Numbered from the stretch's first letter, positions 6,681 through 32,000 are shown. The stretch is DNA of 32,000 nucleotides from Candidatus Saccharimonadota bacterium (GCA_002421785.1 DIRZ01000002.1:120001-152000), one strand, 5' to 3'. Translations and numbers: made by a program. Notes: a model not told the origin generated them from the sequence alone.

Positions 6681-6704
6681 ATATCTATACCTCCTGTAGC
6701 TATT

Positions 6705-6742
6705 ATTATAGTAAATTAGCACTCTAGGTGCAAGAGTGCTAA
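6705..6742 (-). promoter_or_regulatory. clpB promoter with embedded CIRCE (HrcA operator)
   Basis: CIRCE TTAGCACTC-N9-GAGTGCTAA sits at 6716-6742. On the minus strand, TTGCAC (6728-6733, in the spacer) is followed by N17 and TATAAT (6705-6710). Confidence 0.8.
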
Positions 6743-8602: not shown

Positions 8603-8605
8603 ATG

Positions 8606-8881
8606 TTATTTACTCCTCACGAGGACACCCAAAATATCCTCGGCTTTGATAATTGTGTATTCGGTTTTTTCGATATCAACATTTGTGCCGGCATAGCTTT
8701 TACAAATTACTTCATCGCCAATCTTTAGTGTTTCTACGTCGTCAGCTACTGCCGCGACGACTCGAGCTTCTGTTTTTTCCTTAGCGGCGTCGGTAAGCAA
8801 TATACCTGATTTTGTCGTTGAATTTTGTTCTTTCTGCGTGAGTACAACATGACCAGAAAGAGGTTTGATAGGGACGTTCAT
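8606..8881 (-). CDS. groES: Co-chaperonin GroES (Cpn10)
   Basis: MNVPIKPLSGHVVLTQKE..., 91 aa, with AAGGAGG immediately upstream and the stop 3 nt before groEL. The ORF-track start at 9025 runs through the operator. Confidence 0.93.
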   Translation of the reverse strand: MNVPIKPLSGHVVLTQKEQNSTTKSGILLTDAAKEKTEARVVAAVADDVETLKIGDEVICKSYAGTNVDIEKTEYTIIKAEDILGVLVRSK

Positions 8882-8939
8882 ATATCCTCCTTGGGTATTT
8901 ATTGGTATTTCATCAGAAGAACCATGTCTTCTATGTCCA

Positions 8940-8977
8940 AGTTTAGCGAATTGGCACTCTAGCGTCAAGAGTGCTAA
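8940..8977 (-). promoter_or_regulatory. groES-groEL promoter with embedded CIRCE (HrcA operator)
   Basis: CIRCE TTGGCACTC-N9-GAGTGCTAA sits at 8951-8977, with one mismatch. On the minus strand, TTGACG (8963-8968, in the spacer) is followed by N17 and TAAACT (8940-8945). Confidence 0.75.
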
Positions 8978-9343
8978 TTTGCTAGCCCAGACTTGCTTAG
9001 CACCTTTAAAATAAGAAAATGTCACGTCACCACTTGCGCCAGTTACCCGGTTACGTTGAACAGTTAATGTTATGATCTATCAGAACCAGAGGGCATTAAC
9101 TCTGACACAACTTAGCAAGTTTGCATGCAGTGCTAGCGTTACGAATAGTTGCCGATTGGCATGTTTCGCCTCGCCCGTCTCGGCTATTATCTCTTCGGCT
9201 TTCTTCGGAGCATTAACAAAAAATGCATTATGCTTGGCGTCGCTGCCATCGCTCTACCACTTCTGCGCATGCAGTAGTGCAATATATTTCATGGTGTCAT
9301 TATATAAGAATTAGTCCAATATCTTCCTGTTACTGGCATCAAA

Positions 9344-12550: not shown

Positions 12551-13084
12551 CTACGTCTTGAATGAATCATTACAGAAATTACTAGTCTCTATAATATATT
12601 CAATTGTTTCATCTAATGATGATTCTTCCGAAATGATTTTTTCATTATCATGAATTGAGCCATATTCATTGTTATAAAATGTTCGTAAGTCGTTCTCGGT
12701 GTATGTTGACGTATTTCTAGATGGCCTAGTCCTGTGACGCCTGATTGTTTCTTCGAGGCTAACATTAAAATAGTAGGAATAATTTTCCGTAGGGTGCTGT
12801 CTAAAGATTTCATTAAAGTCATTCGCGTATGATTTGGTGCTAAATATACCCTCTGCAATTACATCGTAGCCATCGCTAAGAGCCGTCAACACATTGTTTG
12901 TTATCATTTTGTGCATTGTAGCTGAGTTTTGCTTACTCCCGTGATCACGCGGGCGGAATATAAACCGATAATAGTCTTGCTCGATCAAACATGTATTACG
13001 ATTAGCTTTCTTGAAAAGTTCAGTTGCAACAGTGCTTTTCCCGGATGCCGAAGGACCTCTTAGGATTATTAGTTTCGATGTCAT
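12551..13084 (-). CDS. P-loop NTPase / small-molecule or nucleotide kinase-like protein
   Basis: Walker A GPSASGKST follows directly after the start (MTSKLIILRGPSASGKSTVA). The ORF-track start at 13126 adds an implausible leader. Confidence 0.65.
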   Translation of the reverse strand: MTSKLIILRGPSASGKSTVATELFKKANRNTCLIEQDYYRFIFRPRDHGSKQNSATMHKMITNNVLTALSDGYDVIAEGIFSTKSYANDFNEIFRQHPTENYSYYFNVSLEETIRRHRTRPSRNTSTYTENDLRTFYNNEYGSIHDNEKIISEESSLDETIEYIIETSNFCNDSFKT

Positions 13085-13139
13085 GACTATTATTATTACA
13101 CAAAACAAAAAACACTCTGTTTTCACAAAGTGCTTATGC

Positions 13140-13180
13140 TTTGCTCACAACAATAGAGGAAGTTATAACCACAATTAAGC
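13140..13180. repeat. Intergenic repeat, family B, copy 3
   Basis: TTTGCTCACAACAATAGAGGAAGTTATAACCACAATTAAGC. Confidence 0.8.
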
Positions 13181-13188
13181 GAGATTAC

Positions 13189-13677
13189 TTAGTTGTCTAG
13201 GTTCGTATTTTTAATGATATGAAGAATAGAATTGACCGTCTCATCAAGCGTAAGATCAGAGTTATCGATAATGTGTCCAAATTTGGGCGACGCAATGCCC
13301 CTATCGTAATGATGTTTTATTCTCGAAACTTCCCATTCTGATAACTCACGGTCGCCTCTTTTGCTTTGAGCTACTTCCAGACGGGGTGCTAGTGTAATGA
13401 CGATCTGAGGCTGAGTTTCGACTTCATTCTCAAAACGATCGAAATCTTTTTGTCGCACAACATAATTAGCGATGACGTCTTTTCCTTGTCTCGTAGAGTT
13501 ATTAATAGTCTGAATTGCTAAGTCCATGGACTTATCCAGATCGCTTGCAAGGTTAAAGTTTGGTATGGTGTCATTTAGGTCATCGACATTTACGAAAACA
13601 GCTCCGAGCTTCTTGGCTAAAGCTTTTGCTGTTGTAGTCTTCCCTGAATTAATACTACCGCTGATAAAAACTAACAT
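13189..13677 (-). CDS. P-loop NTPase / kinase-like protein
   Basis: Walker A sits at the N-terminus (MLVFISGSINSGKTTTAKALA). At 162 aa it is the size of a kinase fold. Confidence 0.65.
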   Translation of the reverse strand: MLVFISGSINSGKTTTAKALAKKLGAVFVNVDDLNDTIPNFNLASDLDKSMDLAIQTINNSTRQGKDVIANYVVRQKDFDRFENEVETQPQIVITLAPRLEVAQSKRGDRELSEWEVSRIKHHYDRGIASPKFGHIIDNSDLTLDETVNSILHIIKNTNLDN

Positions 13678-13794: not shown

Positions 13795-13900
13795 CTTTGC
13801 AGACACTATTCTTGATATCGAGCCATAATTGACTTTGGTCAAGGAACTCCTGAGTAAACAGCCCTATAGTCATAGGTACTATCAAACAAAAGGAGTAACT

Positions 13901-14116
13901 ATGACAAGCAAAACCCTTCAACTACAAACCCTCACCTGCCCGAGTTGTATCAACAAGATAACTGCCGGCGTGAAATCACTACCGGGTGTCGAGCGGGTCG
14001 AAGTGCTATTTAATTCCAGCCGAGTTAAGGTCGACTGTGCAGAAGACACCTGTTCATATGAGGATATTAAAAACACCATCGAGCAGCTCGGCTACGAGGT
14101 GCTAAGTGAAAAATAA
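13901..14116 (+). CDS. copZ: Heavy-metal-associated (CopZ-like) metallochaperone
   Basis: A 71-aa ferredoxin-like HMA domain with the CxxC metal site LTCPSC. AAGGAG lies 5 nt before ATG 13901. The ORF-track start at 13829 is an upstream extension. Confidence 0.8.
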   Translation: MTSKTLQLQTLTCPSCINKITAGVKSLPGVERVEVLFNSSRVKVDCAEDTCSYEDIKNTIEQLGYEVLSEK

Positions 14117-15965
14117 ACTTCTGTCCAGCCTAGGCACTAGGCTCGCAGTTGCAGTCGGTCTGACTATATCTGGCTTGCTACTCAACTTCACCTATCCATC
14201 GCAATTTGTCAGCACATTTTTGCTTTTGCTGGCTACTATCATCACCGGTTTACCTATAGCACGTAATGCTCTTAGTGCTTTGCGCTACAAAGTGATCGGT
14301 ATCGACTTATTGGTAACAATCGCTGTGATTGGGGCGGTGTTTATTGGAGAGTACTGGGAGGCCGCCATCGTAGCTGTACTATTTACGCTAGGACACTACC
14401 TCGAAGCTCGATCGATCAAGAAAACTCGCAGCGCTATCAAATCGCTACTCGACCAGGCGCCAGATGTTGCTTGGGTGGAGCGTGATGGCGAAATCATCGA
14501 ACTACCACCGAACGAAGTCGTGCCGAGTGACGTCGTAGTCGTCAAGTCCGGTCAAAAGATTCCAGTTGACGGTGAGATTTCGGGCGGACAGGCTTCTGTT
14601 AACCAAGCTACTGTAACTGGTGAGTCGATGCCGGTCGACAAAACAGAGGGTGATTACGTTTATGCCGGAACTATCATCACCTCTGGTTACGTAAAAATAT
14701 CCGCTGAAAAAGTTGGTGCCAATACTATGTTCGCCCGAATCCTTGAGATGGTCGAAGACGCCCAAGACAAAAAAGCCAAAACTCAAGTCTTTTTAGAGCG
14801 CTTCGCCAGCTACTACACCCCGGCTATCATTGTCCTGGCAGTTACCACCTACCTGATCACTGCTGATATTTACCTGGCACTAACCTTGCTTGTTATCGCC
14901 TGTCCTGGTGCCCTGGTGATTGCGACGCCTATCTCGATTGTCGCCGGCATCGGTAACGGTGCCCGCAATGGGCTGCTGATCAAAGGCGGTGAGTCAATCG
15001 AAAATATCAACTCGGCGCGCGTAATCGCGTTTGATAAAACTGGCACATTGACCGAAGGACAGCCACGAGTCGTGTCGGTCGAGGCCTATGATGTAAACCA
15101 GGACGAACTGCTCACTCTAGCCGCCACCGCTGAATATTATTCCGAGCATTCGCTCGGTGCTAGTGTTGTTGATTTTGCTACCAAACAAACCGGGTCAACT
15201 CCAGCTGCGCCGCTTCATACAGAAGTCTTGACTGGCCTTGGCATCAAGGCTGAGACCGAGTCAGGCACAGTCTTGGTCGGCAATCGTCAACTAGTCCATA
15301 TGCATGACCTTGTGATCAAAAAATCAATCGAAGACCACTTACAGGCTCGAGAAGCCACTGGCGAGACAGCGATGCTAGTAGCCCGCGGCAAATCAATCAT
15401 TGGCGTTATTTCAGTAGCCGACCCGATCCGTACTGGTGCTAAAGATATGATTAAACAACTGCAGAAATCTGGCAAAAATATCGTTATACTGACTGGCGAC
15501 AACCAGCGTACCGCTGCGGCTATCGCCAGGCAACTTGAGATCACTGAAGTCTACAGTCAGCTCATGCCGACCGATAAGGTAGAGCATGTCGCCAGGTTAC
15601 AGAAAGAATACGGCAAAGTCATCATGGTCGGTGACGGGGTCAACGACGCTCCAGCTCTAGCTGCCGCCGATGCTAGCATCGCTACTGGGGGTGTCGGTAA
15701 AGACATTGCCATGGAAGTAGCCGATATCGTCTTGCTCTCAGGAGATGTTAGTAAGCTTAGCTACGCACTCGGCCTAAGCCGCGCGGTGGTGCGCAACATG
15801 AAAACCAATATATACTTCGCCGTGGCTCTGGTCATTATCTTGCTGATCGGCGTCTTGACCAAAAACGTCATCATGAGCCTTGGCATGCTGATTCATGTCA
15901 TCAGCGTGCTGCTGGTTATCATGAACGCTTCAAGGCTATTAAGGTATAGTAGAGACTATGCATAG
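14106..15965 (+). CDS. P1B-type heavy-metal-translocating ATPase without a fused N-terminal metal-binding domain
   Basis: TGES, DKTGTLT, TGDN and GDGVNDAPAL motifs are present. The TM6 motif reads ACPGAL (CPG, not CPC) and the nucleotide-domain motif reads SEHSL (not SEHPL). The GTG start overlaps the copZ stop. Confidence 0.9.
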   Translation: MKNKLLSSLGTRLAVAVGLTISGLLLNFTYPSQFVSTFLLLLATIITGLPIARNALSALRYKVIGIDLLVTIAVIGAVFIGEYWEAAIVAVLFTLGHYLEARSIKKTRSAIKSLLDQAPDVAWVERDGEIIELPPNEVVPSDVVVVKSGQKIPVDGEISGGQASVNQATVTGESMPVDKTEGDYVYAGTIITSGYVKISAEKVGANTMFARILEMVEDAQDKKAKTQVFLERFASYYTPAIIVLAVTTYLITADIYLALTLLVIACPGALVIATPISIVAGIGNGARNGLLIKGGESIENINSARVIAFDKTGTLTEGQPRVVSVEAYDVNQDELLTLAATAEYYSEHSLGASVVDFATKQTGSTPAAPLHTEVLTGLGIKAETESGTVLVGNRQLVHMHDLVIKKSIEDHLQAREATGETAMLVARGKSIIGVISVADPIRTGAKDMIKQLQKSGKNIVILTGDNQRTAAAIARQLEITEVYSQLMPTDKVEHVARLQKEYGKVIMVGDGVNDAPALAAADASIATGGVGKDIAMEVADIVLLSGDVSKLSYALGLSRAVVRNMKTNIYFAVALVIILLIGVLTKNVIMSLGMLIHVISVLLVIMNASRLLRYSRDYA

Positions 15966-16590
15966 TTGTTTAGTCAGAGTACCTATTTTTCAACACCTGA
16001 GCAGTGATGACATGGAGCATATTCATCAGTTCATCCGCCCAAAGCGCTTTGCTAAAGGCGAGTTTGTTCAACTGGCTAGTCATTATAACCCGGAATTACT
16101 GATACTTAACCGTGGCAATGTCAAAGTCTACCGCGGAGATGAAACCGGCACCGAGCAAGTTATCCGCTTGCTTCAGCCGGGCGACTATCTTGGAGAGGCT
16201 GCCGTATTTTCTGCACAAGCCGTCCAATACGATGCCGTGGCCCTAGAAGATTCAACCTTTTGCTCGCTCAGCAAAGATTATCTACATCAGATACTCCGCG
16301 GCAACCCAGAGCTGGCTATCAAGATCCTTGGCGACATGAGCCAGCGTCTACAGTCAGCCGAAACACAGCTCGAGTCACTTGGGCAAAAACCAGCTGAGCA
16401 AAGGCTCTTGAACGCCTTGCGCGCGTATGCTGGTGGTCAGACAACCTTCACCCTACGTATCAGTAAAAAAGACCTGGCCAGCCAAATCGGTGTTCGTCCT
16501 GAGACGCTGAGCAGACACCTTAGTCGTCTTCAGAAGAATAATCTAATACATGTAGATCACAAAACCATTACTTTTCTTTCGCCAAAATAA
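15958..16590 (+). CDS. Crp/Fnr-family transcriptional regulator
   Basis: An N-terminal cNMP-binding-type beta-roll (GDYLGEAAVF) and a C-terminal HTH (KKDLASQIGVRPETLSRHLSRLQKNNLI). The ATG overlaps the ATPase stop by 8 nt. Confidence 0.85.
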   Translation: MHSCLVRVPIFQHLSSDDMEHIHQFIRPKRFAKGEFVQLASHYNPELLILNRGNVKVYRGDETGTEQVIRLLQPGDYLGEAAVFSAQAVQYDAVALEDSTFCSLSKDYLHQILRGNPELAIKILGDMSQRLQSAETQLESLGQKPAEQRLLNALRAYAGGQTTFTLRISKKDLASQIGVRPETLSRHLSRLQKNNLIHVDHKTITFLSPK

Positions 16591-20750: not shown

Positions 20751-21074
20751 ATGACCAAGCCACGCGAACAGTTCATTGAATGTTTACCAATATTCAATGC
20801 ACTCGGTGATCAAACAAGGCAAGCTATCCTCTTTCTGATTAACGAGGAAAAAGGATTGAATGTTCTGCAGATAGCAACCAAGATAGGCCTTTCCCGCCCG
20901 GCCGTTTCCCATCATCTGCGAGTACTGCAGGATGCAGGAATCATCGATCACCGAAAAGTAGGGCGAGAACGAATCTATTACTTCTCATTTGAGAAGGCCC
21001 TCAAAAAGATGAGTCGACTAGTACACTCTGTCGAAACATCTTGGCAGTCGCCAAAAACTAACCCCTCCACTTAG
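20751..21074 (+). CDS. ArsR/SmtB-family transcriptional regulator
   Basis: ALGDQTRQAILFLI...LNVLQIATKIGLSRPAVSHHLRVLQDAGII forms a winged HTH. It starts 12 nt after the MMPL stop. Confidence 0.85.
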   Translation: MTKPREQFIECLPIFNALGDQTRQAILFLINEEKGLNVLQIATKIGLSRPAVSHHLRVLQDAGIIDHRKVGRERIYYFSFEKALKKMSRLVHSVETSWQSPKTNPST

Positions 21075-22161
21075 CAAGACGCCTTCTATCGTCTATGCTT
21101 TCATAGGCCTTTACTCGCCCATTCAAGTATCCGAGCCGATATGAGATGCCGTCGCTCATGAGGCGCCAATTGGTGTCCTCGAGTGCGCTATCGACTAGCT
21201 TTTTCAATGTCTTTCTGCTGTCGTAGTCTTTTCGATCAGACTTACTGTCTAGGCAGCTGAACCCGACATATACATCTCGCCCCAATTCTGGTTTGTCGAG
21301 ATGGAATTCAATATACCCTTCCTTTTCGAGCGGTTCGGACAGTAGCGGGATAAGCTCGGCGATCTTTGGCGTTTTGATCTCTTTGACGGCATCATAGATA
21401 TGCTTGTTGTCACGCTTTTCTTGCATCTCTTTGCCCAGCTGAGCCATCCCTTCGAAGTCGCGCTTCATAGTAAATAGGCGATCGCGGAATTCTTTGTCGA
21501 CCAGGCAGAAGTGGATACGGTCTTCATCAAAATGAGGATCAGGCTCCTCTTCTTTGGTAGATAGATCCATTCTGTCCTTGAAGCAGTGATCACATGACGT
21601 ACATGTGTAGGTGATGGTAATCGCTTTTTTGGTCTTGCTTGTTTTATGTGTAACATCCGAGTTACATTTCGGACAGAGTGTCGGCTTTACCTCCCAGGCG
21701 GTACCGTCTTCCCAAAACGCACTGTTCTTCTCGCAGTGAGGACATTGAAGCATGAATAATACTTCTTTCGGGTCATCGATTTCGTAGTTTTCGCCTCGAT
21801 GCATCAGTGATTTGTCGGTAATTCGCAGGCCTTGCTTGCCGCAGTGATGGCAATATGGCTCTTCTAAGAGACGAGCATTCGCTATCCGCTCGTCCAAAGA
21901 TTCGTCACGAGCCATCCACTCGCCGATAGTTGATTCGCGTTTTTCGTAGCAGTGGATTAGTTCATTGCCAACGGTCTGCATGTAAAACACGTTTACAGCG
22001 AAAGCATTGCCCGGCTTATCGAGCTTCTCGCATTTCGGGAGCTTACTCTCAAATTCAGTGAGGAATTTATCGTAATGAACCATGCCACGACGAGCAGCTT
22101 CGATGGTGAGCCTATCGTAGAGATCTTCGTAATAATGGCGATCTTTGAGATGCGTGTACAT
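21058..22161 (-). CDS. Hypothetical protein with four CxxC pairs (two predicted zinc ribbons)
   Basis: CHHC, CPHC, CPKC and CTSC are clustered in the middle third of a 367-aa ORF. It lies 54 nt downstream of the FtsK-like gene. Confidence 0.6.
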   Translation of the reverse strand: MYTHLKDRHYYEDLYDRLTIEAARRGMVHYDKFLTEFESKLPKCEKLDKPGNAFAVNVFYMQTVGNELIHCYEKRESTIGEWMARDESLDERIANARLLEEPYCHHCGKQGLRITDKSLMHRGENYEIDDPKEVLFMLQCPHCEKNSAFWEDGTAWEVKPTLCPKCNSDVTHKTSKTKKAITITYTCTSCDHCFKDRMDLSTKEEEPDPHFDEDRIHFCLVDKEFRDRLFTMKRDFEGMAQLGKEMQEKRDNKHIYDAVKEIKTPKIAELIPLLSEPLEKEGYIEFHLDKPELGRDVYVGFSCLDSKSDRKDYDSRKTLKKLVDSALEDTNWRLMSDGISYRLGYLNGRVKAYESIDDRRRLAKWRG

Positions 22162-22215: not shown

Positions 22216-23994
22216 CTATGGAAACGGATTTGATTCATGAGCGGTTTTGACCGCTTCTTCAAGCAGTTCGGGGTCGTTCATAATTTTATCCGCAATATCT
22301 TCGTATAGTCTTTGAGCTTCTTCTTCGCCAAGCTTTTCCTTCACAAGTCCCGGCACACCCATATTCGTAATCCTCGACTGCCACACTTTTACTAGTTGCC
22401 AACGCAGCTTTGCCTTCCAGCGAAAGCCTTTTTTGTAGTGATGCCCGACCTGAGCAGTAACAAAATATTCGAAGTCTTCCATAAGATCAGTCTTAACGAC
22501 TTCGTTATCAGTGTCTTTCACATCATTACCTTTCTGCATCGATTGCTGTGACCAGAAACTTGTCAACGATTCAACTTCTTTATCACTGATATAGGCCGCT
22601 TGAACTCGTTGCAATGAGCTGTTGGGACCCTCCCTAAAAAGAAGGTCGCCTTGACCAAGGAGTTTCTCCGCACCAGCCTCATCTAGCGTGGTCATGCTAT
22701 CTAATTTACTGGCCGTCACAAATGACCAATGCGTTGGCATACTAGTTTTTAATATGTCCGTGAATACATCAACGCTTGGGCGACTAGTTGAAAAGATAAG
22801 GTGTATTCCAAAATTATTAGCCTTGTTCGATATCTTTCTCACCACTTCCTCTACTCTTCTTCCATCGACCATCATAAGGTCTGAGAGTTCATCTGTGAGA
22901 ACGACTACATTAGGAAGATGCTCAGTGGCTATGCGGTTGAGCTCATCTATCGAACTTACATGGTAGTGGGCAAAGATATTTTCTCGTCGATCAACCTCTT
23001 TGCTCAACCAATCCAAGGCATCAGACCATTGCTCTGGCCTTTCAATTACTGGCATCAGTAGATGGGGCAGCTCTCGATAAGGCGCTAGCTCTACCTGTTT
23101 CGGGTCAACAAGCATCAACTTCAGTTCATCCGGATTGTTTCGGAATAACAGACTGGCAAGTATCGCATTACTCATGACTGATTTACCAGATCCAGTCTGT
23201 CCTGCAAATAATAAATGTCCTATTTTGGACAGGTCAGCAATAACTGGCTTTCCGTATAGATCTTTACCGACAGCAATGCTCAGCGGGCTCGTTGAATCTC
23301 GCCATTCCGTACTATCAAAAATACTGGCAAGCGGTACGTCCGCAGCCTTCACATTCGGAACTTCGATGGCAACAAAGCCATTACCAGAGGTTGCTTTTGT
23401 GATTCTGATTGAAATTGCTTGCAAATTCAAAGCTATATTTGACTCAAGCTGCATTATTTTTTCTGCTTGAACGTTTTCTGGAAGCTGCAGTACATATTGC
23501 GTCACTTTATGTGCGACATTTGCCTCAATAGCTTCAGCATTAATTCCAAATTCTGAAATAGTATCAATAATATTATTTGCAATCTGCTGAACGTCACCAG
23601 CATCCGCGCGACCAGCTACCGGCTCGCCTAATAGAGCTAACGAAGGAAGCTTCCATACTAGTTTGGTTTTACCCGTTGAGTCCGATGAATCGATCTGGCC
23701 GGCGTCTTGTGGCTGCGCGCCTTCTGTAGATACTCCAGTTATATAGTCCGATATGTTGGTGGGTGAAAAATCAATGTCATCGATGTCTACCTGTTTTAAC
23801 AAGCCCGTACTCTCGTTTATCATCCAGCCACCGCTCAAATGCATAGGCACACCAGTCGAACCGATAAAGTGATTTTTCCACTCCCCATCTTTTGACTTTT
23901 GTGGCAACCAAATCCCCGGCGGCTGTGCGGTTAATAGGCCATTCTCAAACAATTCCCTGAACTTCGATTCAACATTATCACTCATTGCTTCCAT
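22216..23994 (-). CDS. FtsK/SpoIIIE-family DNA translocase-like ATPase, soluble (no TM region and no recognisable gamma domain)
   Basis: The WKLPSLALL linker motif, FtsK alpha/beta-like region, Walker A GQTGSGKS, Walker B VVVLTDELSDLMM and RPSVDV are present. The N-terminal ~110 aa are hydrophilic and the C-terminal ~110 aa are unrelated to the winged-helix gamma domain. Confidence 0.8.
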   Translation of the reverse strand: MEAMSDNVESKFRELFENGLLTAQPPGIWLPQKSKDGEWKNHFIGSTGVPMHLSGGWMINESTGLLKQVDIDDIDFSPTNISDYITGVSTEGAQPQDAGQIDSSDSTGKTKLVWKLPSLALLGEPVAGRADAGDVQQIANNIIDTISEFGINAEAIEANVAHKVTQYVLQLPENVQAEKIMQLESNIALNLQAISIRITKATSGNGFVAIEVPNVKAADVPLASIFDSTEWRDSTSPLSIAVGKDLYGKPVIADLSKIGHLLFAGQTGSGKSVMSNAILASLLFRNNPDELKLMLVDPKQVELAPYRELPHLLMPVIERPEQWSDALDWLSKEVDRRENIFAHYHVSSIDELNRIATEHLPNVVVLTDELSDLMMVDGRRVEEVVRKISNKANNFGIHLIFSTSRPSVDVFTDILKTSMPTHWSFVTASKLDSMTTLDEAGAEKLLGQGDLLFREGPNSSLQRVQAAYISDKEVESLTSFWSQQSMQKGNDVKDTDNEVVKTDLMEDFEYFVTAQVGHHYKKGFRWKAKLRWQLVKVWQSRITNMGVPGLVKEKLGEEEAQRLYEDIADKIMNDPELLEEAVKTAHESNPFP

Positions 23995-24032: not shown

Positions 24033-24677
24033 ATGTCTGGCAGATACTCAAAAATAGAATGGCAAGAGACCATGAACGGCGTCACCATCGACTGCTCGCT
24101 CGATATTGCTATTCATCCTGCCGATAGTAAGGTTGTTTTGCTTACTGTGCCAGGTGTTGACGGGTCAATTGACGGGTACGAAAACAAATACGTGAGGATC
24201 GCTGATAGCGTCCAGGAACAGCACGGAACTGCAATCGTACGAATTGCAAATCCTTTCATTACGTCGTATCACTGGGAATCTAACATACGCCAGGCTGTCA
24301 ATTACATCCTCGTGAATACAGAAGAAATAACTGGCAACAAAGATGCTGAGATCCGTATTATGGCGCACTCTGCCGGTGCAGCTGTAGTGGCCCAGATAGC
24401 CTGGGAATACCCAGAGATTACTAGGTTACTATTGATCAATCCTGCCACAAAGCTCGGAATCGACAAGATACAATACGGCTTATCTGAATTCGACGGCAAC
24501 ATGATTACTGTTTTATTTGGAAGCGAAGACCCAAGCGTCGGTGACGTGGATGAAATCGCCAAACTTTCTATAGCCAAGCGTGTATATATGCACATTCTCG
24601 AAGGGGTTGATCATAACTTTTCTGGGGAGTCACTGGAAGCATTTATTGCTGCCCCGGCATTATATTTATTTGACTAA
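24033..24677 (+). CDS. Alpha/beta-fold hydrolase
   Basis: The nucleophile elbow is MAHSAGA, and later acidic and His residues (GVDHNF) fit the fold. The protein is 214 aa. Confidence 0.6.
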   Translation: MSGRYSKIEWQETMNGVTIDCSLDIAIHPADSKVVLLTVPGVDGSIDGYENKYVRIADSVQEQHGTAIVRIANPFITSYHWESNIRQAVNYILVNTEEITGNKDAEIRIMAHSAGAAVVAQIAWEYPEITRLLLINPATKLGIDKIQYGLSEFDGNMITVLFGSEDPSVGDVDEIAKLSIAKRVYMHILEGVDHNFSGESLEAFIAAPALYLFD

Positions 24678-24685
24678 ATAGGTAC

Positions 24686-25108
24686 TTATTTTAAATCTTT
24701 TTCAACGATCGACTTTAGAAGTTTTAGTTCATGCACCATTTGATCCGGATATTTAGCTAAAATAACCTCAATCCACGAATTGAATACTCCGTGCTCGTGG
24801 AGATCAATCCTCTCGCCGCTAAAGCAGTCGTCGTCGAACCACAGAAATGGTTTCGTAAAGTCGATCGCTTCAGTTTTCTTCAAGCTCCAAGTGACTGGCT
24901 TAAACTTTTTCAGCCATGGTCGTATATCTTCATCACTTCCACGTTGCAGATATTCTATTGCATGGTCGGTCGACCCGTCCATGCAATGGGTTGTTAACCA
25001 ATATACTTCGAAGTTATCTGCGGCATATTTTATAAACTCAGCCGCACCAATAGCCAAGTTCTCTTCATTTGCCAGTAGCACCCCGTCAATATCAACGTAT
25101 ATATTCAT
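24686..25108 (-). CDS. Small capless HAD-superfamily phosphatase-like protein
   Basis: Motif I DIDGVL, motif II LTTH and motif IV WFDDD are present. ATG 25108 lies 4 nt after the upstream stop. The ORF-track start at 25201 overlaps the Zn-ribbon gene. Confidence 0.65.
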   Translation of the reverse strand: MNIYVDIDGVLLANEENLAIGAAEFIKYAADNFEVYWLTTHCMDGSTDHAIEYLQRGSDEDIRPWLKKFKPVTWSLKKTEAIDFTKPFLWFDDDCFSGERIDLHEHGVFNSWIEVILAKYPDQMVHELKLLKSIVEKDLK

Positions 25109-25112
25109 AATT

Positions 25113-25340
25113 TTACCTGCCGTGTAACTCCTCGTCGATAGAGCGTCGTGCCTTAGTGTCGAAATCAGTTTCACAGTCATTACAGTGGCGATTTGGATCA
25201 TCGAAAGATACTACACATCCACCAAAATGTACGCGTCCTGCATTGGCCTCGGCCTCGAGCTTTTCATCCACGGCGGGTTCTCCATACATGATACGGCAAG
25301 TATTCGAAGAGTTGCAGTTTGGACATTTTATTCGTGGCAT
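25113..25340 (-). CDS. Small zinc-ribbon protein (75 aa)
   Basis: CPNC...CNDC forms a four-Cys ribbon. AAGGAG lies 8 nt upstream, and the ATG is 1 nt after the DUF2779 stop. Confidence 0.6.
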   Translation of the reverse strand: MPRIKCPNCNSSNTCRIMYGEPAVDEKLEAEANAGRVHFGGCVVSFDDPNRHCNDCETDFDTKARRSIDEELHGR

Positions 25341-25341
25341 A

Positions 25342-26703
25342 TTATAGCTCCTTTAGTTTTCTATATATCTCAACCATCGCCCACGTATCCATCTTGCAAT
25401 ACTCAGTCAGGTCGGCGAGTATCTGCTCTTTCTGATCGGCACGCGTCTCATCGAGTACCGCTTCCATCCAGAGTCGTTGAGCGGAGTTGCCGTCTTGAAT
25501 ACCGAGGTCTTTGTAGCTTAGCTCAGGACACACTACGGGCAGCACTTTTTTGATGCTAGCACTTCCCTCGCAGCGCGGATCGTCATACCATTTTGCCTTA
25601 AATGGAATCATGAGGTCGACAACACGTTCGTTGATGGCCGTGATTTGCTCGGCATACTCCGGGTACATCCGTCCCAGCTCTTCGTTTACTGATTTTTCAA
25701 AGCGCATATTCCAGGTAATGATTGAGCCGGAATCGCCCATATCTTCTACTAGCCGTTTAGCTAAATCTGGTGCTGGATTTGTGTTATCTTTATGGAGATA
25801 TTCTCGATGCTCTACTTCACCACCAGGTTCACGGATGATATGTAGTGAGTATTGGAACGGCACCTGCTGATACGGTCGTTGTCCATCAAAATATGGCACG
25901 AGGCCCTGCATCGTTTCGTAATCAAAGAAGTAGAGTGGGTACTGCAATTCACCCAAAAAGCGCTCGATCTCTTGCTTGTTGATTTCGGCTCGAGTATCTT
26001 CTGGCCACACCTTGGGTTCAGGCGGAAAGATATTTTCATATACCTTCATCCATTCAGATTTCGAGCCGAGCTTTGCTAGTTCCGGATTCGGATCAGGCAT
26101 TTCGGCTTGCGTGGCAGCTTTCTTCGCTGCTTCCATGTATTCTGGTGTTTTAACGGCAATTTCATTTACATCTTCTGTCACATCTGCAAACGTTGTAAGC
26201 TCTTTTGGGTTAACGTCACCCTCGCGAACATACTGATTATTTACATGAATTACAAAGATATTTCGGACCGTAAATCCATTACCCTCAAGCACGGTTTTTT
26301 GAAAAGCCAAATCGTACAGATGATCTGGTTTAACGCGTGTGCTGGATTTAATCTCATACAGGTCAATCGTCTTATCCTCCACGACTGAAACAATGTCAGA
26401 TATGCAGGTAAATCCATTCCATTCAAAGCGGGGCTGGAATACTACCTGAGCACCCGATTCAAAAGCTTGCTGGGTTCGCAGTGGCAGTGAGCGATATTCA
26501 TCGAAATCACTAAAGCCGAGCGTGACTCCTTCTGGAAACAGCGATTCCACATACGGCTCAAAAGCATGTCCGGCGTCGAACATTGCTTGTGTCGCTGCGT
26601 CGACGGGTGGAAGTTTGCTCGGGTCATTCTTTTTTAACCAAAGCCAAGCCGGCTGACGGAGAAAGAGCATGTAATCGGATTTGGATATTTGATTCTGTGC
26701 CAT
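25342..26703 (-). CDS. DUF2779-type two-domain nuclease, paralogue 2
   Basis: It carries the same motifs as paralogue 1: ISKSDYML, DLYEIKSSTRVK, YFFDYET, PFQYSLH and YCKMDTWAM. Its start overlaps the upstream stop (TAATG). Confidence 0.7.
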   Translation of the reverse strand: MAQNQISKSDYMLFLRQPAWLWLKKNDPSKLPPVDAATQAMFDAGHAFEPYVESLFPEGVTLGFSDFDEYRSLPLRTQQAFESGAQVVFQPRFEWNGFTCISDIVSVVEDKTIDLYEIKSSTRVKPDHLYDLAFQKTVLEGNGFTVRNIFVIHVNNQYVREGDVNPKELTTFADVTEDVNEIAVKTPEYMEAAKKAATQAEMPDPNPELAKLGSKSEWMKVYENIFPPEPKVWPEDTRAEINKQEIERFLGELQYPLYFFDYETMQGLVPYFDGQRPYQQVPFQYSLHIIREPGGEVEHREYLHKDNTNPAPDLAKRLVEDMGDSGSIITWNMRFEKSVNEELGRMYPEYAEQITAINERVVDLMIPFKAKWYDDPRCEGSASIKKVLPVVCPELSYKDLGIQDGNSAQRLWMEAVLDETRADQKEQILADLTEYCKMDTWAMVEIYRKLKEL

Positions 26704-27122
26704 TATCTTATCTTCCTACTCCGAGCTTGATCATTTATCCGCTTGAGGTTATTGTAAATCTCCTCGTACGACGAACTGGCAGTAGCAGACCGTTTTTTCG
26801 ATGCCTTCTTCGATTTTCGTGCTGGCGGTCGAACATAAACGTGCATTTTACCGTCACCCTTCAGTTTTACGAAGATAGTCTTACCAACACGCAAACCCTT
26901 ATTAATCCTCAGACTCTCAATAAATGCCCTTTTGCGATCAGGGCTCATGCTCTTAATGCTCCCCGCAATTTGATCAACATGAGTTACAGTTTTGAGAAAC
27001 TTATAATCAGGCGTCACGCCACCGCCAGTCGAATAAGCACTGTCGTCACGACCCTCTCCGCCAGTCTCTATTACGCCATGACCCTTTGTTGTGTAGTCGG
27101 AGTAAGAGTAGCGGATGCCCAT
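26703..27122 (-). CDS. Hypothetical protein with a Gly-rich N-terminus and a strongly basic C-terminus (139 aa)
   Basis: An open frame 7 nt after the helicase stop with no Shine-Dalgarno, which suggests coupled translation. No motif was recognised. Confidence 0.55.
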   Translation of the reverse strand: MGIRYSYSDYTTKGHGVIETGGEGRDDSAYSTGGGVTPDYKFLKTVTHVDQIAGSIKSMSPDRKRAFIESLRINKGLRVGKTIFVKLKGDGKMHVYVRPPARKSKKASKKRSATASSSYEEIYNNLKRINDQARSRKIR

Positions 27123-27129
27123 TTGACCG

Positions 27130-29853
27130 TTACCAGCGTGCCTTGAAATGCTCTACTTTTATAAACTCATCAAGCACCTTGCTGCAACGTTCCCAGTCGT
27201 ACGCCTGCACCATTGTAGGGTTCTCGTATTTAGCTTCAAACGGACTCTTTTCAGGCAATTCATTGATCGTTTTCTTCGCTTCATCAATTTTTCCTTGGGC
27301 AACGAGTGTCCAGGCTGATTCGAGAACGTCAGGGACCTGTCCGAAAATTTCATTAATCGACTTAAGCCGATCCGAAAGAGCCCGATGAACCTTGTCTTCT
27401 ACGGAATCTTTGTACCGCATATTATAAACATAAACTTCATCACGTTTCTGCCCGATACGCTGTATTCGACCCTTTCGCTGCTCAAGCTTAGTCGGATTCC
27501 AAGGTAAGTCGATATTTATTAATGTTCCGAGAGTCTGCAGATTGAGACCTTCACTAGCAGCATCTGTGCCAAATATAATTTTTATCTCACCGCGCTTCAC
27601 CATGCGCTTTAGCTCGTCCTTGGGACGCTTTACAAATTCGCCATTTACAAATAGTCCGGATTTATCTCCACCGGCATAAATTGCAATCTGTTGATCAGGA
27701 AACACATTGTCTCGAACAAGTTTTTCTGCGAACCACCAGACCGTATCAAAATACTGAGAAAATACAATGCAGCCCATTTCGGCCCATTTTTCATCACGGA
27801 GCAACTTAACAAGTAGTCCATATTTTGGATCACTGTCCAGCTTGTCAGAAATAATACTCAAGAATTCGTGAAGAGCAGACTTTGTCGGTGCATCAATCTC
27901 AATCTCTTCGCCCTTTACCGCCTTCGAGGTATCTTCGTCGCTGTTTCCCTCATCCTCTTCTGCAAGGGACATTTCAAGCTCCGAGCCCTGTTCACCAGCA
28001 CCTTTTTGAAGCATCTTTTCTGCCGTTATCTTACCTGCATACATCGAGCTACCTACGCGCCTGAGGATCATCGTAGTGATAAATCCGCTATTTTTGTGCC
28101 CCATATCTGCGGCTATCTGCTCGGCTTTTGCATATGCATCCTGCAAGTAAACTGTAAGTGGCAATGCTTCTTTTTCATCTTCGCCAAATAGTTTTACGTG
28201 TATCGGCAAAAGGTACGGCTCGCCTGTTGCTGGGTCGACCGTCGTTTCAAGATATTTTCTTGTGCGTCGAATAATTCTAGTTATGAAAGGATTATATTTT
28301 GCTGCAAAATCTTCTGAAATTTGCTCGAACAATGACCGCTCATGCGGCGAAAGTTCACCATACTGCGATACCGCAAAATAATCACGCGGCTTCATATTAA
28401 ATTGCTCTCTAAGCACTCGGTATGTCATAGGGTTTCGCATGCCATCCGGGAATGGATTCCGAAGCCAATCCCACAGCTCCTGCTTACTGTGGATTTCATA
28501 GCTGCCAGAGAGTATATTTAGAGCGTCGTCGACTCGTGTTCGCCACGGGCTAGCCTGTGAGCCCATAACTCGATCGTCACCTTGTGCGAGTATATTTAGC
28601 AAGTCCCACGCCTCTACAGGCAGTAGTTGTACTGGTGTTGCCGTACCCATGAGCATATGCTCGGTCTTTTTCGATATTCGCATGAGATAGCTATATAGAT
28701 TGTTTGGTTCTGGCGGCTGAGCCTGCTTGTCTTTATGTAGATTCTTTCGTCTTGATCGGTGGCATTCGTCAACGATTACCGTATTATATTCGACGTTCAG
28801 TAAGCTCTCGGCCGCTTCAGTGCGTGCGGTAATAATACCTTGCGATACAATACCAATTTTTCGCGGACAACGGCGAATATCGTCGGGACGACGACCAGTA
28901 GTAGTATTACCCTCTTCGTCAATCCACGACTTGCCATCCCAGACGGCCGACGGTAATCCCATCAAATCCCTTAACTCATCTTGCCACTGATACAAAAGTG
29001 TCTTCGGCGCAATAATCAGGACTGGCTTACTGCTATCAAGAGATAGTATTTGAGCACTGAGTCCGAGCTGAACGGTCTTACCAAGACCTACCATATCAGC
29101 CAGTATGTACCTGGCATTTAGCCCAGCTTGTTTAGTGCGAAAAACTAGATCTATAAAGTACTTCTGATGCTCCCAAAGCCCTAAGCCCCCACGATAAACA
29201 GGTGATTCAACGATACTTTCCTCAGGCTTTTTGACTTTCTCAATCTCATATATTACTTTGCGTTCAGCTATTCGCTGAATGTCTTCTACGATAAAGTCGA
29301 TGAGCGGCCGTGCAGACTCATGATTCCACAACGTATCAAACTCTTCTTGCACCCAATCTACTGATCCTTCGGAATCATCTTCCCAAACCAGTTCGTAATT
29401 TCGCTCCCAGCCAGACTGACTTTCGTTCATACTACCTAAAAACGATGTTTTCGAACCATCACCAAGCGTTACAACTCCTGCTTTACCATGGATAAAACCA
29501 AAGATTTCATCGGGTACAACGCGCACTTCAAGCTTGCCACTTTTTAGCAAGGCGTATAGCTTTGTTAGTCTGTCAGGATACCCTACGTGTGCTTTCTCTG
29601 GGCTTTCTTCGCACCATTCCTGACGGATCGAAGACTCGTAAGCCTTCACACTTCGTACGTCGTCGATTTGCAGATGAGCGTTGCAGACAATCCGGACCTT
29701 GCCTTCGATTTGCTCAAGGGCTTCACCGGACACATCAAACAGCGATGTGGCAAAATAACCTGCTATACGGTCATATTGCTTCGCACCGGCTAACCGCTGG
29801 TTCAATAACGATTCACTTAATTTTTGGCGACGTGAAGAATACCGCTGCAGCAT
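27130..29853 (-). CDS. Fusion protein: N-terminal phospholipase-D-family (HKD) nuclease domain plus SNF2/DEAD-like helicase
   Basis: The HKD motif is FIHGKAGVV...GSMNES. Helicase motifs are ADMVGLGKT (I), VIVDECH (II), GTATP (III) and QRKGRIQRIGQ (VI). The protein is 907 aa. Confidence 0.88.
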   Translation of the reverse strand: MLQRYSSRRQKLSESLLNQRLAGAKQYDRIAGYFATSLFDVSGEALEQIEGKVRIVCNAHLQIDDVRSVKAYESSIRQEWCEESPEKAHVGYPDRLTKLYALLKSGKLEVRVVPDEIFGFIHGKAGVVTLGDGSKTSFLGSMNESQSGWERNYELVWEDDSEGSVDWVQEEFDTLWNHESARPLIDFIVEDIQRIAERKVIYEIEKVKKPEESIVESPVYRGGLGLWEHQKYFIDLVFRTKQAGLNARYILADMVGLGKTVQLGLSAQILSLDSSKPVLIIAPKTLLYQWQDELRDLMGLPSAVWDGKSWIDEEGNTTTGRRPDDIRRCPRKIGIVSQGIITARTEAAESLLNVEYNTVIVDECHRSRRKNLHKDKQAQPPEPNNLYSYLMRISKKTEHMLMGTATPVQLLPVEAWDLLNILAQGDDRVMGSQASPWRTRVDDALNILSGSYEIHSKQELWDWLRNPFPDGMRNPMTYRVLREQFNMKPRDYFAVSQYGELSPHERSLFEQISEDFAAKYNPFITRIIRRTRKYLETTVDPATGEPYLLPIHVKLFGEDEKEALPLTVYLQDAYAKAEQIAADMGHKNSGFITTMILRRVGSSMYAGKITAEKMLQKGAGEQGSELEMSLAEEDEGNSDEDTSKAVKGEEIEIDAPTKSALHEFLSIISDKLDSDPKYGLLVKLLRDEKWAEMGCIVFSQYFDTVWWFAEKLVRDNVFPDQQIAIYAGGDKSGLFVNGEFVKRPKDELKRMVKRGEIKIIFGTDAASEGLNLQTLGTLINIDLPWNPTKLEQRKGRIQRIGQKRDEVYVYNMRYKDSVEDKVHRALSDRLKSINEIFGQVPDVLESAWTLVAQGKIDEAKKTINELPEKSPFEAKYENPTMVQAYDWERCSKVLDEFIKVEHFKARW

Positions 29854-29854
29854 A

Positions 29855-32000
29855 TTAAACTCCGTCGTTCTCCACTAGGCTCTTGACGTATTTTGCGTAC
29901 TGCACCGAGTCTACCCAGTGCTCAGCACCTTCGACTGTCTCAAATGCAATGATCGCGTCAAACACTTCTGATATTTTCGGCCGATCTGTCCAGTATGTCG
30001 GTACCTCATTGCGAAGCCAGTTTTTACCAGCCGTTGCATCATCGTTTTTTATTGAAACATATATTGCCATGAGGATTTGTCGTACTAAGGTACCAGCTAG
30101 TGGATGGCTATCGGAGATATACTTATTTGCAAACTCAACCGGTGTTTTGACGCGGGCGGCATTCGCCTTGCTTGATGCCAGCATAGTAGTGTATTCAGCG
30201 ACTCCCAGACCCCTTGCAAGCTCTTGGTATGACGATAGTGCAAAGTTACCTGTACGCTCAAACTCTAGAGCTTTAATGTAATACTTTTCTTCCTTAGTGA
30301 AGTCTTTCCAAGTGGCTTTAGAGAAACCTTTTGGTATTAGGTATTCAAATGCTACACGCACGGCCGATTCGATGATCGTTTGGATTGGCGATTTGTTCTT
30401 TTTGTCACGCTCGCGGTTGAGTTCTAGCTCCACGTTTACGTCACCGAGAGTTTTGTAGCTAGTGAGGACTTTTAGGGATGCTGCGTAGGCTGCGAGCATG
30501 TAGTCGTTGTCAGTAAAATCTGGTTCTGCGCCAGCATCAAGATCTCGCATACTATCAATTTGCAGTTTCACCTCACGCTTGATCTGCGGGTAGATGTCTT
30601 CGAGCCATCCGCTTTCGTTCCCTAGGTTTTTGCGAAGCACCATGAGCACAGTACCTTTTACGTAGTTGCCCGCCTTTAGACCGCTAGCGTCTGTTTCGGT
30701 GGCTATATTCCAAGCCGCAGTTACCTGCAGACCAGCAGACCAGAGAATAAGTGACATTTCTGCCCAAACCGCCGGGTCTTGATGTGTAAACATAACAACC
30801 TGCATACCGTCGTCGGGCATATGATTAGCAAGATTCTTGTAAACGTCTACCATTGAATGAGCAAAGGAGCTCCCTGTGCCCTTTACTGCACGGTCCCTGT
30901 TGCTATGGCTATACCATTCCGGAAATGTCTTTTTGATGAGTTTATTGTCCCAGGCGAGGAAAAATTCAGAGAGCTCATGATAATTAACTGCATCTGCGTA
31001 CGGTGGGTCAGTAATCCAAAAATGACATACATCATTTACAGTTCTTGCGTCTTCAACTTTTACCGAAGCGCTCGTTTTAATGCCGTATTCTTTTACTTTC
31101 ATACCCCACAAGTCTTCTAGCATCGGTAGAGCACGTACGGGATAATTGTATACTGTGTTTAGTGCCTGATTATAGAAAGTTTGCGCTGCAGATTCACGAG
31201 CTTGGCCAGTTCCCCAGCGACAAAGCTTACTATTCCAATCAGCAATTTTGTTAACACCTAATGTAGCGAGGGCTAGTTCATCTTGCTTAGCGCGCCTAAA
31301 GCTAGACTCGATAAATAATCCCAGCGTAAGTAGCTGTCTTGGGTTGAAAAGTTGGTGCCAATAACTCCACCCTCGCTCGCGGATAGGTTGGTCGGTGTTA
31401 TAGCCCGACTCTATCCGATCGGATGGCAAATAGCCCTTTTCTTGCCAATCTATAAATCGCTCACTTAACAATTCGATGACCTTTTTTTCGCGTTGTATAT
31501 CTCCGGCCGTAGGAGCGGTGTAGTATCTTGCGCTTTTGCCGTTAACATTTCTTTCGTAACGTATTGCAAAAAGTCTTTCTTGGAAAATATCATCGTCTCG
31601 AGGGTAAAAATCGGACTTTTCCCATGATCTTAATCCGCTCGTAGGTTTCCCTTCAGGACTTTTGCGATCTCTACGAATTGAAGATATAGGAGTTACTGTT
31701 TTACAATTCAGGCAATTAACGCCATCACTAGTAATGGTAGAGGTTGAATTTACTTGTGCGATTTCTTCCTTGGAGGCATTCATTTTAATTGATATATCAA
31801 AGGATTGCGAAGAAAAATTTGGTTGCAGCTGAGCTATAGTCTTACTCCCCATGCCAACAATCCATGAAGGAGATAATGGAACTCTCCATCCGCATGCTGG
31901 GCACGTGACTTCATTGCAATATAAATACATGTTTGCACGGTCGCCTATCTCATTGCGTTCTATTCCCCACTGCTCAAGCTGGGAGTCTACCTCGGCGTAT
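29855..32000 (-). CDS. Zn-ribbon-containing DNA methyltransferase of the DUF1156/COG1743 type (5' end outside the window)
   Basis: The catalytic motif IV is WITDPPYAD. The Zn ribbon is CPAC...CLNC. The frame stays open upstream of Met 31930 to the window edge (YAEVDSQLEQWGIERNEIGDRANMYLYC...). Confidence 0.8.
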   Translation of the reverse strand, partial: YAEVDSQLEQWGIERNEIGDRANMYLYCNEVTCPACGWRVPLSPSWIVGMGSKTIAQLQPNFSSQSFDISIKMNASKEEIAQVNSTSTITSDGVNCLNCKTVTPISSIRRDRKSPEGKPTSGLRSWEKSDFYPRDDDIFQERLFAIRYERNVNGKSARYYTAPTAGDIQREKKVIELLSERFIDWQEKGYLPSDRIESGYNTDQPIRERGWSYWHQLFNPRQLLTLGLFIESSFRRAKQDELALATLGVNKIADWNSKLCRWGTGQARESAAQTFYNQALNTVYNYPVRALPMLEDLWGMKVKEYGIKTSASVKVEDARTVNDVCHFWITDPPYADAVNYHELSEFFLAWDNKLIKKTFPEWYSHSNRDRAVKGTGSSFAHSMVDVYKNLANHMPDDGMQVVMFTHQDPAVWAEMSLILWSAGLQVTAAWNIATETDASGLKAGNYVKGTVLMVLRKNLGNESGWLEDIYPQIKREVKLQIDSMRDLDAGAEPDFTDNDYMLAAYAASLKVLTSYKTLGDVNVELELNRERDKKNKSPIQTIIESAVRVAFEYLIPKGFSKATWKDFTKEEKYYIKALEFERTGNFALSSYQELARGLGVAEYTTMLASSKANAARVKTPVEFANKYISDSHPLAGTLVRQILMAIYVSIKNDDATAGKNWLRNEVPTYWTDRPKISEVFDAIIAFETVEGAEHWVDSVQYAKYVKSLVENDGV

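Follow-up and report, generated by a model that had tools for sequence, protein, structure and literature searches.

Do six tightly packed genes in a Candidatus Saccharimonadota genome form one extended defence system, or are they two units that lie side by side? The question is raised by a stretch of 32,000 nucleotides (nt) from Candidatus Saccharimonadota bacterium (GCA_002421785.1 DIRZ01000002.1:120001-152000), referred to below as the window, in which the block studied occupies positions 24,686-32,000. The original prediction described this block as six packed co-directional minus-strand open reading frames (ORFs), in which a methylase/helicase pair is joined to a DUF2779 nuclease, a zinc ribbon and a mini-HAD (haloacid dehalogenase-like) phosphatase, and suggested an extended modification-dependent defence or DNA-end-processing system with additional effectors. 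All six ORFs are present as described, with successive gaps of 1, 7, -1, 1 and 4 nt read from the sequence, and every motif listed for the methylase, helicase, DUF2779 and HAD proteins was found in the translations. Nevertheless, we favour another reading, with a probability of roughly 75%: a canonical MANTIS operon is the cargo of a variable defence slot, the conserved 3' flank of this slot is DUF2779 (with or without HAD), and co-transcription of the two is a by-product of genome compaction.

The block would then represent a juxtaposition of two units rather than one six-gene system. The first unit (window 27130..32000) comprises mtsC and mtsD, the distal half of the four-gene MANTIS operon. 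The second (24686..26703) would comprise DUF2779, a sporadic Zn ribbon and the mini-HAD, which together with an FtsK-like gene and a multi-zinc-ribbon gene would make up a conserved frame of candidate phyla radiation (CPR) genomes. P139, encoding a protein of 139 amino acids (aa), would be a tiny, fast-diverging orphan gene at the junction of cargo and frame. The other side of the slot would often be formed by a divergent ParB-methyltransferase and a small-terminase-like gene, with a large serine recombinase often near. The features are listed in Table 1.

The methylase and the helicase are identified by their profile matches as MtsC and MtsD of MANTIS, the DUF499-centred phage-defence system also designated Gao_RL, Gao_29 and BREX-related type 2; Gao_RL was recently placed in the latter class (PMC12839542). 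The partial methylase in the window scores 945.6 bits against NCBIfam NF042963, and the full-length MtsC, available on the longer contig L001, passes the cut-off of this model (1301 bits against 1000). The gene matches PADLOC DUF1156_MTase (E = 3e-204), and its translation carries DPPY and a four-cysteine ribbon (CPAC...CLNC). MtsD passes the cut-off of NF042964 (1182 bits against 1100), matches PADLOC PLD_Helicase (E = 1.6e-228; PLD, phospholipase D) and the Pfam domains PLDc_2, SNF2-rel_dom, ResIII and Helicase_C, and contains the HKD motif HGK...GSMN together with GLGKT, DECH, TATP and QRKGRIQRIGQ, Walker A and B motifs being present. The NCBIfam labels for the pair are the equivalogs "anti-phage-associated DUF1156" and "phospholipase D-like anti-phage".

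Contig L001, obtained by an exact-protein look-up, shares 14.9 kb with the window at 100% identity and gives a locus of 22.7 kb. Extension past the methylase, as the original prediction had proposed, places DUF499 and DUF3780 directly upstream, and the operon order on L001 is DUF499 (1037 aa), DUF3780 (192 aa), DUF1156 methyltransferase (962 aa) and PLD-helicase (907 aa), followed by the four downstream genes. MtsA (L001 3442-6555, PF04465 DUF499, an AAA+ ATPase family of the ORC/Cdc6 clade) matches NF042962 over its full length at 763 bits, under the equivalog cut-off of 1200, and MtsB (L001 6530-7108, PF12635), a standalone DUF3780 protein, matches NF042961 over nearly its full length at 150 bits, under the cut-off of 200; both genes lie just beyond the window end. 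MtsA, MtsB, MtsC and MtsD are all found on L001 in the A-B-C-D order. The view that the methylase/PLD-SNF2 pair is a defence module travelling with a DUF499 ATPase is thus borne out by this contig, and the family has since been named MANTIS. The locus shares with other MANTIS loci the same four families in the same order, with MtsC and MtsD above the NCBIfam equivalog cut-offs. It differs from them in belonging to Saccharibacteria (CPR), in MtsA and MtsB falling below their cut-offs, in having no MtsR-like gene called upstream, and in the four tightly packed genes after mtsD, which are absent at other MANTIS loci.

The mechanism of MANTIS (MtsA-D) was dissected in a Pseudomonas system, where the four genes mtsA-D are enough for methylation and restriction; its hallmark is that adenine in an asymmetric 6-bp site becomes hemimethylated, and restriction needs MtsA-D (bioRxiv 10.64898/2026.09.23.753747). 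By homology to the Pseudomonas system, MtsA would load the MtsC methyltransferase onto short asymmetric sites and MtsB would stimulate hemimethylation, marking self DNA. Unmodified sites, inverted pairs above all, would allow incoming DNA to be restricted by MtsD, which acts as a dimeric ATPase-PLD nuclease.

The comparison with class 1 DISARM drawn in the original prediction holds for domain types only (SNF2-like helicase, adenine methyltransferase and PLD nuclease), and membership in DISARM does not follow. PLD is fused to the helicase here, whereas DISARM has a separate DrmC; DrmA, DrmB (DUF1998) and a second helicase gene were not found on the 22.7-kb extended locus. The helicase was rejected as a DrmD equivalog (NF038317, 169 bits against a cut-off of 610; NF038318, 129 bits against 950). 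BREX types 1-6 were rejected as well: no PglZ or BrxC domain was found in the L001 genes, and the PglX match of the methyltransferase in PADLOC is weak.

Two reciprocal synteny searches bear on the four genes that follow mtsD. Starting from MtsD, we collected 64 metagenomic loci (38-92% identity), and the A-B-C-D order is seen in all whose sequence extends sufficiently upstream. Downstream of mtsD, 40 of these loci have 500 nt or more and 25 have 1.5 kb or more, and not one of the 40 holds a relative of P139, DUF2779, ZnR75 or HAD140. Starting from DUF2779, one genome per GTDB species was searched, which gave more than 532 species with a relative; the best 80 loci, from CPR bacteria and with flanks up to 10 kb, were analysed. 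MtsD is near DUF2779 in one of these 80 (L054, with two other genes between), ZnR75 is found in one, and P139 in none. Since 0 of 40 MANTIS loci carry the downstream genes and only one of 80 DUF2779 loci has MtsD, P139, DUF2779, ZnR75 and HAD140 are, judging by synteny, not MANTIS components, and the predicted extended system with extra effectors fails this test. In L054 (2336..6802) the order is MtsD (67%), a 230-aa gene, a GmrSD-like DUF262/HNH enzyme (585 aa), DUF2779 (50%) and a Macro-domain protein, and the DUF2779 start overlaps the stop of the preceding gene.

What occupies the place of MANTIS in other genomes? The complete genome CP011211 is 86-94% identical to the window at the nucleotide level in Hsp20, ClpB, DUF2779 and HAD. 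In this and the other closest Saccharibacteria relatives (DUF2779 85-89% nt), homology to the window starts at about codon 5 of DUF2779, and no alignment was found upstream of this point. DUF2779 and the mini-HAD are kept at core-gene identity in close relatives while the upstream stretch is replaced, so that the pair comes after type I or type III restriction-modification (RM) systems instead of MANTIS. To describe the upstream cassettes more broadly, 1315 genes called from the DUF2779 loci were clustered, the recurrent upstream clusters were annotated with Pfam, and a census (including PADLOC) was made of the 74 immediately upstream genes. The cassettes include type I RM (HsdM/S/R with YgjP and NUDIX-SRA), type III Mod/Res, an SNF2 helicase with an Eco57I-like methyltransferase, an MmeI-like (type IIL) enzyme with a DEAD helicase and T5orf172, a 1402-aa T5orf172-ResIII-Eco57I fusion, type ISP methyltransferases, GmrSD, Thoeris ThsA/ThsB and reverse transcriptases. 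The DUF2779(+HAD) pair follows many unrelated defence systems, and the idea of MANTIS-specific downstream genes is not upheld.

The gene directly upstream of DUF2779 shares its direction in 66 of 74 loci, whereas the background share is 67% (p = 1e-5). Of 74 loci, 26 have a labelled defence family at most four genes upstream, and none of 76 has one downstream. This contrast is biased upward: the clustering was global, but the labels were given to clusters that had been noted on the upstream side. In the downstream census, thioredoxin/DsbA, FtsK-like, ITPase, Macro, type IV secretion system (T4SS) pilin and tRNA synthetase genes predominate. In CPR genomes, DUF2779(+HAD) is best read as marking where a variable defence slot ends on its 3' side. 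A position of DUF2779 at the 3' end of defence cassettes was not found in the DUF2779/UU173 literature searched.

The slot appears to exchange its content between lineages. In locus L086, mtsD is 90-99% identical to the window at the nucleotide level and DUF2779 85-89%, the latter like the core genes in CP011211. Because mtsD of L086 is nearer to the window than its DUF2779, the pattern is consistent with MANTIS having recently moved from one lineage to another and entered the same slot. In L085, a MtsA/MtsD set about 95% identical lies beside a serine recombinase, without DUF2779. The target-recognition part of mtsC is only 40-60% identical (nt) in L086. Among L001, L085 and L086, MtsC is 73-74% identical while MtsA and MtsD are 95-99% identical, and the central part of mtsC (L001 7700..8900) shows 40-60% nt identity to L085 and L086, L001 7854 onward corresponding to window 30955..32000. 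This divergence of MtsC fits a swapped target-recognition domain and different methylation specificities.

The original prediction that the DUF2779 protein is a Cas4-like + DEDD dual nuclease is correct, and this architecture is already published (PMC3985635, PMC13621843). DUF2779a scores 145 bits against PF11074 (gathering cut-off 23.3), with weak Cas4 and RNase_H_2 matches, and has 4548 homologue clusters. Eight residues (D103, E117, K119, D261, E263, E336, Y435 and D439) are invariant in an 18-sequence DUF2779 alignment. They fall into the motifs D103/E117-I-K119 and D261-x-E263, N..FE336, Y435-x3-D439, which were assigned to PD-(D/E)XK and DEDD(y), respectively, by inspection and by analogy to PMC13621843. 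A PDB search with the single DUF2779 sequence gave no match. Like UU173/MMSYN1_0389 of JCVI-syn3.0, the protein combines a Cas4-like N-terminal half with a DEDD(h/y) RNase H-fold C-terminal half and has intact catalytic residues; the CPR proteins differ in being shorter (about 450-530 aa against the 650-position NCBIfam UU173 profile). The homologue in this minimal Mycoplasma is quasi-essential (PMC13621843).

DUF2779 homologues at 65-95% identity belong to Candidatus Saccharibacteria metagenome-assembled genomes (MAGs), and the 7.3-kb region had no megablast match among PLSDB plasmids or complete E. coli genomes. The window itself holds a second DUF2779 copy (2352..3716, minus strand, 454 aa; PF11074 138.5 bits), which is 76% identical to the 25342..26703 copy. 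It lies downstream of GroES/GroEL (6980..9025), ClpB (4539..6722) and Hsp20 (3978..4403), and a NUDIX hydrolase (1847..2305) comes after it. Two DUF2779 copies also occur in other CPR MAGs (L010/L054, L052/L058 and L057/L065). Some DUF2779 genes have housekeeping contexts, namely rpoB-rpoC-dnaG-rpoD in L060, L066 and L070, and FKBP in others.

HAD140 was called from the ATG at 25108, although the longest ORF starts at 25201, because the homologues all begin at MNIY and an independent gene call gives 140 aa. Pfam and NCBIfam give no match for this protein, and a PDB search with the single sequence gave none. Its motifs DIDGV, WLTTH, K78 and FDDD (HAD I-IV) are invariant in 13 and in 25 homologues, and 1293 homologue clusters were found. 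The AlphaFold2 (AF2) model has a pLDDT of 88. Its Foldseek matches are weak and mostly HAD-superfamily members (best HAD E = 0.04-0.3, TMq up to 0.57), the top matches being of a generic Rossmann fold, and a PDB profile search gave HAD proteins only, at sub-threshold E = 0.46-1. The earlier mini-HAD call is reasonable in view of the invariant motifs, the AF2 model and the mostly-HAD Foldseek matches, and with moderate confidence we regard HAD140 as a mini-HAD and a probable phosphatase. A HAD140 homologue, a frequent companion of DUF2779 in Saccharibacteria, is located at most 10 kb from it in 15 of 80 loci, usually at most three genes downstream. It is also found without DUF2779 or MANTIS, beside other RM, SIR2-HerA and recombinase genes. 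ZnR75 is sporadic, and its Pfam Zn_ribbon_8 match is under threshold. Its homologues are limited to two settings: in L004 one separates DUF2779 from HAD, and in L153/L154 it is followed by a P139-like gene and another PLD-SNF2 helicase.

P139 has no match in Pfam, NCBIfam or PADLOC, and Foldseek found no credible fold match for its AF2 model (pLDDT 66.6). Its family is tiny, with 14 clusters at 90% identity and about 20 small representatives among 1.84 billion proteins in a profile search, and the N-terminus is invariant across the family. The genes occur after mtsD (L001, L085, L086), after a C5 methyltransferase without MANTIS (L083), after DUF2779 and just before an FtsK-like gene (L156), and between a ZnR75-like gene and a PLD-SNF2 helicase (L153). 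In L086, P139 is 48% (aa) and 39-58% (nt) identical to the window copy, while the flanking MtsD is 98.7% and DUF2779 94% identical (aa). Despite this divergence, the ORF length and the 7-nt spacing are kept (window 26703..27122; L086 5606..6025; L001 12788..13081), and the divergence could reflect allele swapping or diversifying selection. In L153 (44..4394) and in L154, ZnR75-like (38%) and P139-like (39%) genes stand directly upstream of a 1098-aa PLD(HKD)-SNF2 helicase; that of L153 is only 23% identical to MtsD. ZnR75- and P139-like proteins may be linked to PLD-helicases more generally.

The five successive junctions of at most 7 nt are operon-like. Elsewhere in the window the gaps span 46 to 318 nt, and all junctions of the block are tighter. 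A single tight junction is ordinary in CPR genomes, since 50% of co-directional neighbours are at most 20 nt apart across 81 CPR loci (the extended window contig and the 80 genome loci). A terminator scan found no minus-strand terminator-like site inside the six-gene block and promoter-like matches in it are not above the shuffle level, both scans being at shuffle level. Co-transcription of the block, predicted from its packing, is plausible. The tight spacing probably represents read-through co-transcription, which is the norm in these compact genomes and does not make the downstream genes MANTIS components.

Table 1. Features of the six-gene block and the adjoining right-hand frame (window coordinates)
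Feature	Coordinates	Strand	Basis or remark	Junction with the next gene of the block
mtsC, DUF1156 N6-adenine methyltransferase, 3' 714 codons	29855..32000	-	Frame open to window end; N-terminus beyond window	TAA-T-ATG, 1 nt (stop 29855, ATG 29853)
mtsD, PLD(HKD) nuclease fused to SF2/SNF2-like ATPase, predicted MANTIS effector	27130..29853	-	NCBIfam, PADLOC, Pfam	TAA + 7 nt + ATG (stop 27130, ATG 27122)
P139, small basic protein, tiny orphan family	26703..27122	-	ORF and family search	TAATG overlap at 26703
DUF2779a, Cas4-like PD-(D/E)XK and DEDDy 3'-5' exonuclease domains	25342..26703	-	PF11074	TAA-T-ATG (stop 25342, ATG 25340)
ZnR75, 75-aa four-cysteine zinc ribbon	25113..25340	-	CxxC...CxxC in translation	TAA + 4 nt + ATG (stop 25113, ATG 25108)
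HAD140, capless mini-HAD-like putative phosphatase	24686..25108	-	Conserved motifs	
Alpha/beta-hydrolase-like gene, convergent, between HAD140 and FtsK-like gene	24033..24677	+	Weak Hydrolase_4 match	
Soluble FtsK/SpoIIIE-like translocase, right-hand frame	22216..23994	-	FtsK_SpoIIIE and FtsK_alpha domains	
Zn367, 367-aa multi-zinc-ribbon protein, partner of FtsK-like gene	21058..22161	-	Weak TerY_C and Zn_ribbon matches	

On this evidence the competing explanations can be compared. We consider it very improbable that the six genes (eight if mtsA and mtsB are counted) make up a single extended system for modification-dependent defence or DNA-end processing, in which DUF2779, the Zn ribbon and HAD serve as extra MANTIS effectors. 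Operon-like packing and the lack of an internal terminator-like site agree with such a system, L086 and the partial contig L002 show the arrangement again, and auxiliary nucleases beside BREX-related systems are a described theme (PMC12839542). However, both synteny searches contradict it, the closest relatives have RM systems before DUF2779(+HAD), HAD140 is found apart from both DUF2779 and MANTIS, and four genes suffice in Pseudomonas. A narrower proposal limits the addition to P139, which would be a lineage-specific fifth MANTIS gene of Saccharibacteria (a regulator, adaptor or self-protection factor), with DUF2779, ZnR75 and HAD140 as unrelated neighbours. The constant 7-nt distance after mtsD in L001, L085 and L086, the presence of MANTIS and P139 without DUF2779 next to the serine recombinase of L085, and the distant relative adjoining another PLD-SNF2 helicase in L153 speak for it. 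We nevertheless hold it to be doubtful, as relatives of P139 also follow a C5 methyltransferase without MANTIS or DUF2779 itself, the gene is missing from all 40 other MANTIS loci with room for it, and its 48% identity in L086 against 98.7% for MtsD argues against co-evolution.

The remaining alternative gives DUF2779, often with a HAD or NUDIX partner, a role of its own: it would be a cassette-independent partner of any upstream restriction-type system, co-transcribed with it and acting in genome-reduced CPR bacteria as a generic DNA-end processor or as a nuclease that degrades restriction products. The excess of co-directional upstream genes described above agrees with this role, as do the gaps of at most 20 nt in 39 of the 66 co-directional loci, the many start/stop overlaps with unrelated genes, the predominance of DNA-cleaving systems among the upstream cassettes, the conservation of both nuclease active sites, and the recurrence of HAD, NUDIX, ITPase and HD genes beside DUF2779. 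But the share of tight gaps (59%) is near the background of 50%, upstream Thoeris and reverse-transcriptase systems create no DNA ends to process, many DUF2779 genes stand in housekeeping contexts (including Hsp20/ClpB/GroESL for the second window copy), and the quasi-essential homologue in JCVI-syn3.0 suggests a housekeeping role (PMC13621843); we therefore regard the proposal as unlikely. A related suggestion, that CPR DUF2779 with a mini-HAD, NUDIX or ITPase is not just a passive flank but a module at the 3' end of the slot's restriction-type defence system, which processes or recycles the DNA ends arising from that system in a RecBCD-like or salvage role in genome-reduced cells, is in our opinion likewise unlikely.

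Several observations weigh against the interpretation of MANTIS as cargo beside an independent 3' flank. With the TAATG overlap, the gaps of 1-7 nt and no internal terminator-like site, the genes are probably co-expressed, and co-expression could mean function. MANTIS is upstream of DUF2779 in two more Saccharibacteria contexts, L086 and L054 (the latter with a 50%-identical paralogue). P139 follows mtsD at the same spacing in three contexts, in one of which (L085) MANTIS is present and DUF2779 is not. Cleavage by MtsA-D has so far not been reconstituted in vitro (10.64898/2026.09.23.753747), and a missing cofactor is possible. The upstream/downstream contrast of defence labels carries the bias mentioned above, and the PADLOC scan shows a few scattered defence genes downstream of DUF2779. 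Finally, the ParB-methyltransferase/recombinase frame is seen in only about one tenth of the loci, a share to be read with the 10-kb flank limit, which hides larger slots.

The frame itself can be followed on both sides of the slot. To the left on L001 (1..3063, upstream of mtsA) are a divergently transcribed ParB_N + N6_N4 DNA methyltransferase, an Sf6-type small-terminase-like (TerS-like) protein, a 100-aa protein and DUF4268. The ParB-methyltransferase occurs in 8 of 80 loci, in seven of them on the opposite strand upstream of the slot, at DUF2779 identities from 47% to 66%; a TerS-like gene occurs in 6 of 80 and a large serine recombinase in 7 of 80. To the right, the order DUF2779, HAD, FtsK-like gene, Zn367 is kept in L017, L018 and L021 and on the IMG/VR contig L165 as in the window, and in L019 the FtsK-like gene precedes HAD. 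The alpha/beta-hydrolase-like gene has homologues at the same position in L029 and L083; L017, L018 and L021 lack it, and the FtsK-like gene there comes straight after HAD. Seven of 80 loci have a Zn367 homologue downstream of DUF2779, and several IMG/VR contigs also carry one. The FtsK-like protein (592 aa) matches SspH and mad8 in PADLOC, and together with Zn367 it may form a translocase for conjugation or packaging, or else a defence module of the HerA/FtsK type.

DUF2779 relatives were found on 12 of 2.9 million IMG/VR contigs, a number that argues against a typical phage gene, though these contigs share frame genes: 7 of the 12 also have the ParB-methyltransferase, a TerS-like gene or a serine recombinase. 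No tRNA genes or recombinase were found in the 32-kb window, and no att sites or element ends were found. Judged by its gene content, the frame suggests a mobile-element-like island with a hotspot for defence cargo. Two adjacent small P-loop (GxxGxGKS/T) kinase-like genes (window 12551..13677, minus strand) lie next to a heavy-metal-type module (13829..16590, plus strand), which consists of an HMA-like CxxC protein, a P-type ATPase (14106..15965) and a Crp-family regulator (15958..16590); they appear to be additional accessory cargo, situated between the frame and the genes for chaperones.

Hotspots of defence cargo in mobile elements are represented by the P2/P4 prophage hotspots, hotspot 5 of the SXT integrative and conjugative element and defence islands. 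The CPR slot resembles them in its conserved flanks around a site at which unrelated defence systems are switched among close relatives, with a recombinase and phage-like genes nearby. It differs in its CPR/Patescibacteria hosts and in the 3' flank, formed by DUF2779, often with mini-HAD, FtsK-like and Zn-ribbon genes.

The locus is a Saccharibacteria copy of the already named MANTIS/Gao_RL, not a novel extended system, and its annotation should say so. The repeated location of the widespread dual nuclease DUF2779 at the 3' edge of the CPR defence slot may make this gene a useful landmark when defence systems are sought in this phylum, which is largely without CRISPR. If DUF2779 is indeed an end-processing module, the frame from the ParB-methyltransferase to DUF2779 would represent a dedicated mobile carrier of defence cargo in CPR bacteria. 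Since Saccharibacteria strains near 90% nucleotide identity hold different cassettes here, and a near-identical mtsD is found in a more diverged background, defence exchange looks active in Saccharibacteria epibionts, which bears on their genetic manipulation. The part most worth following is, in our view, the putative DUF2779-anchored defence slot in CPR genomes.

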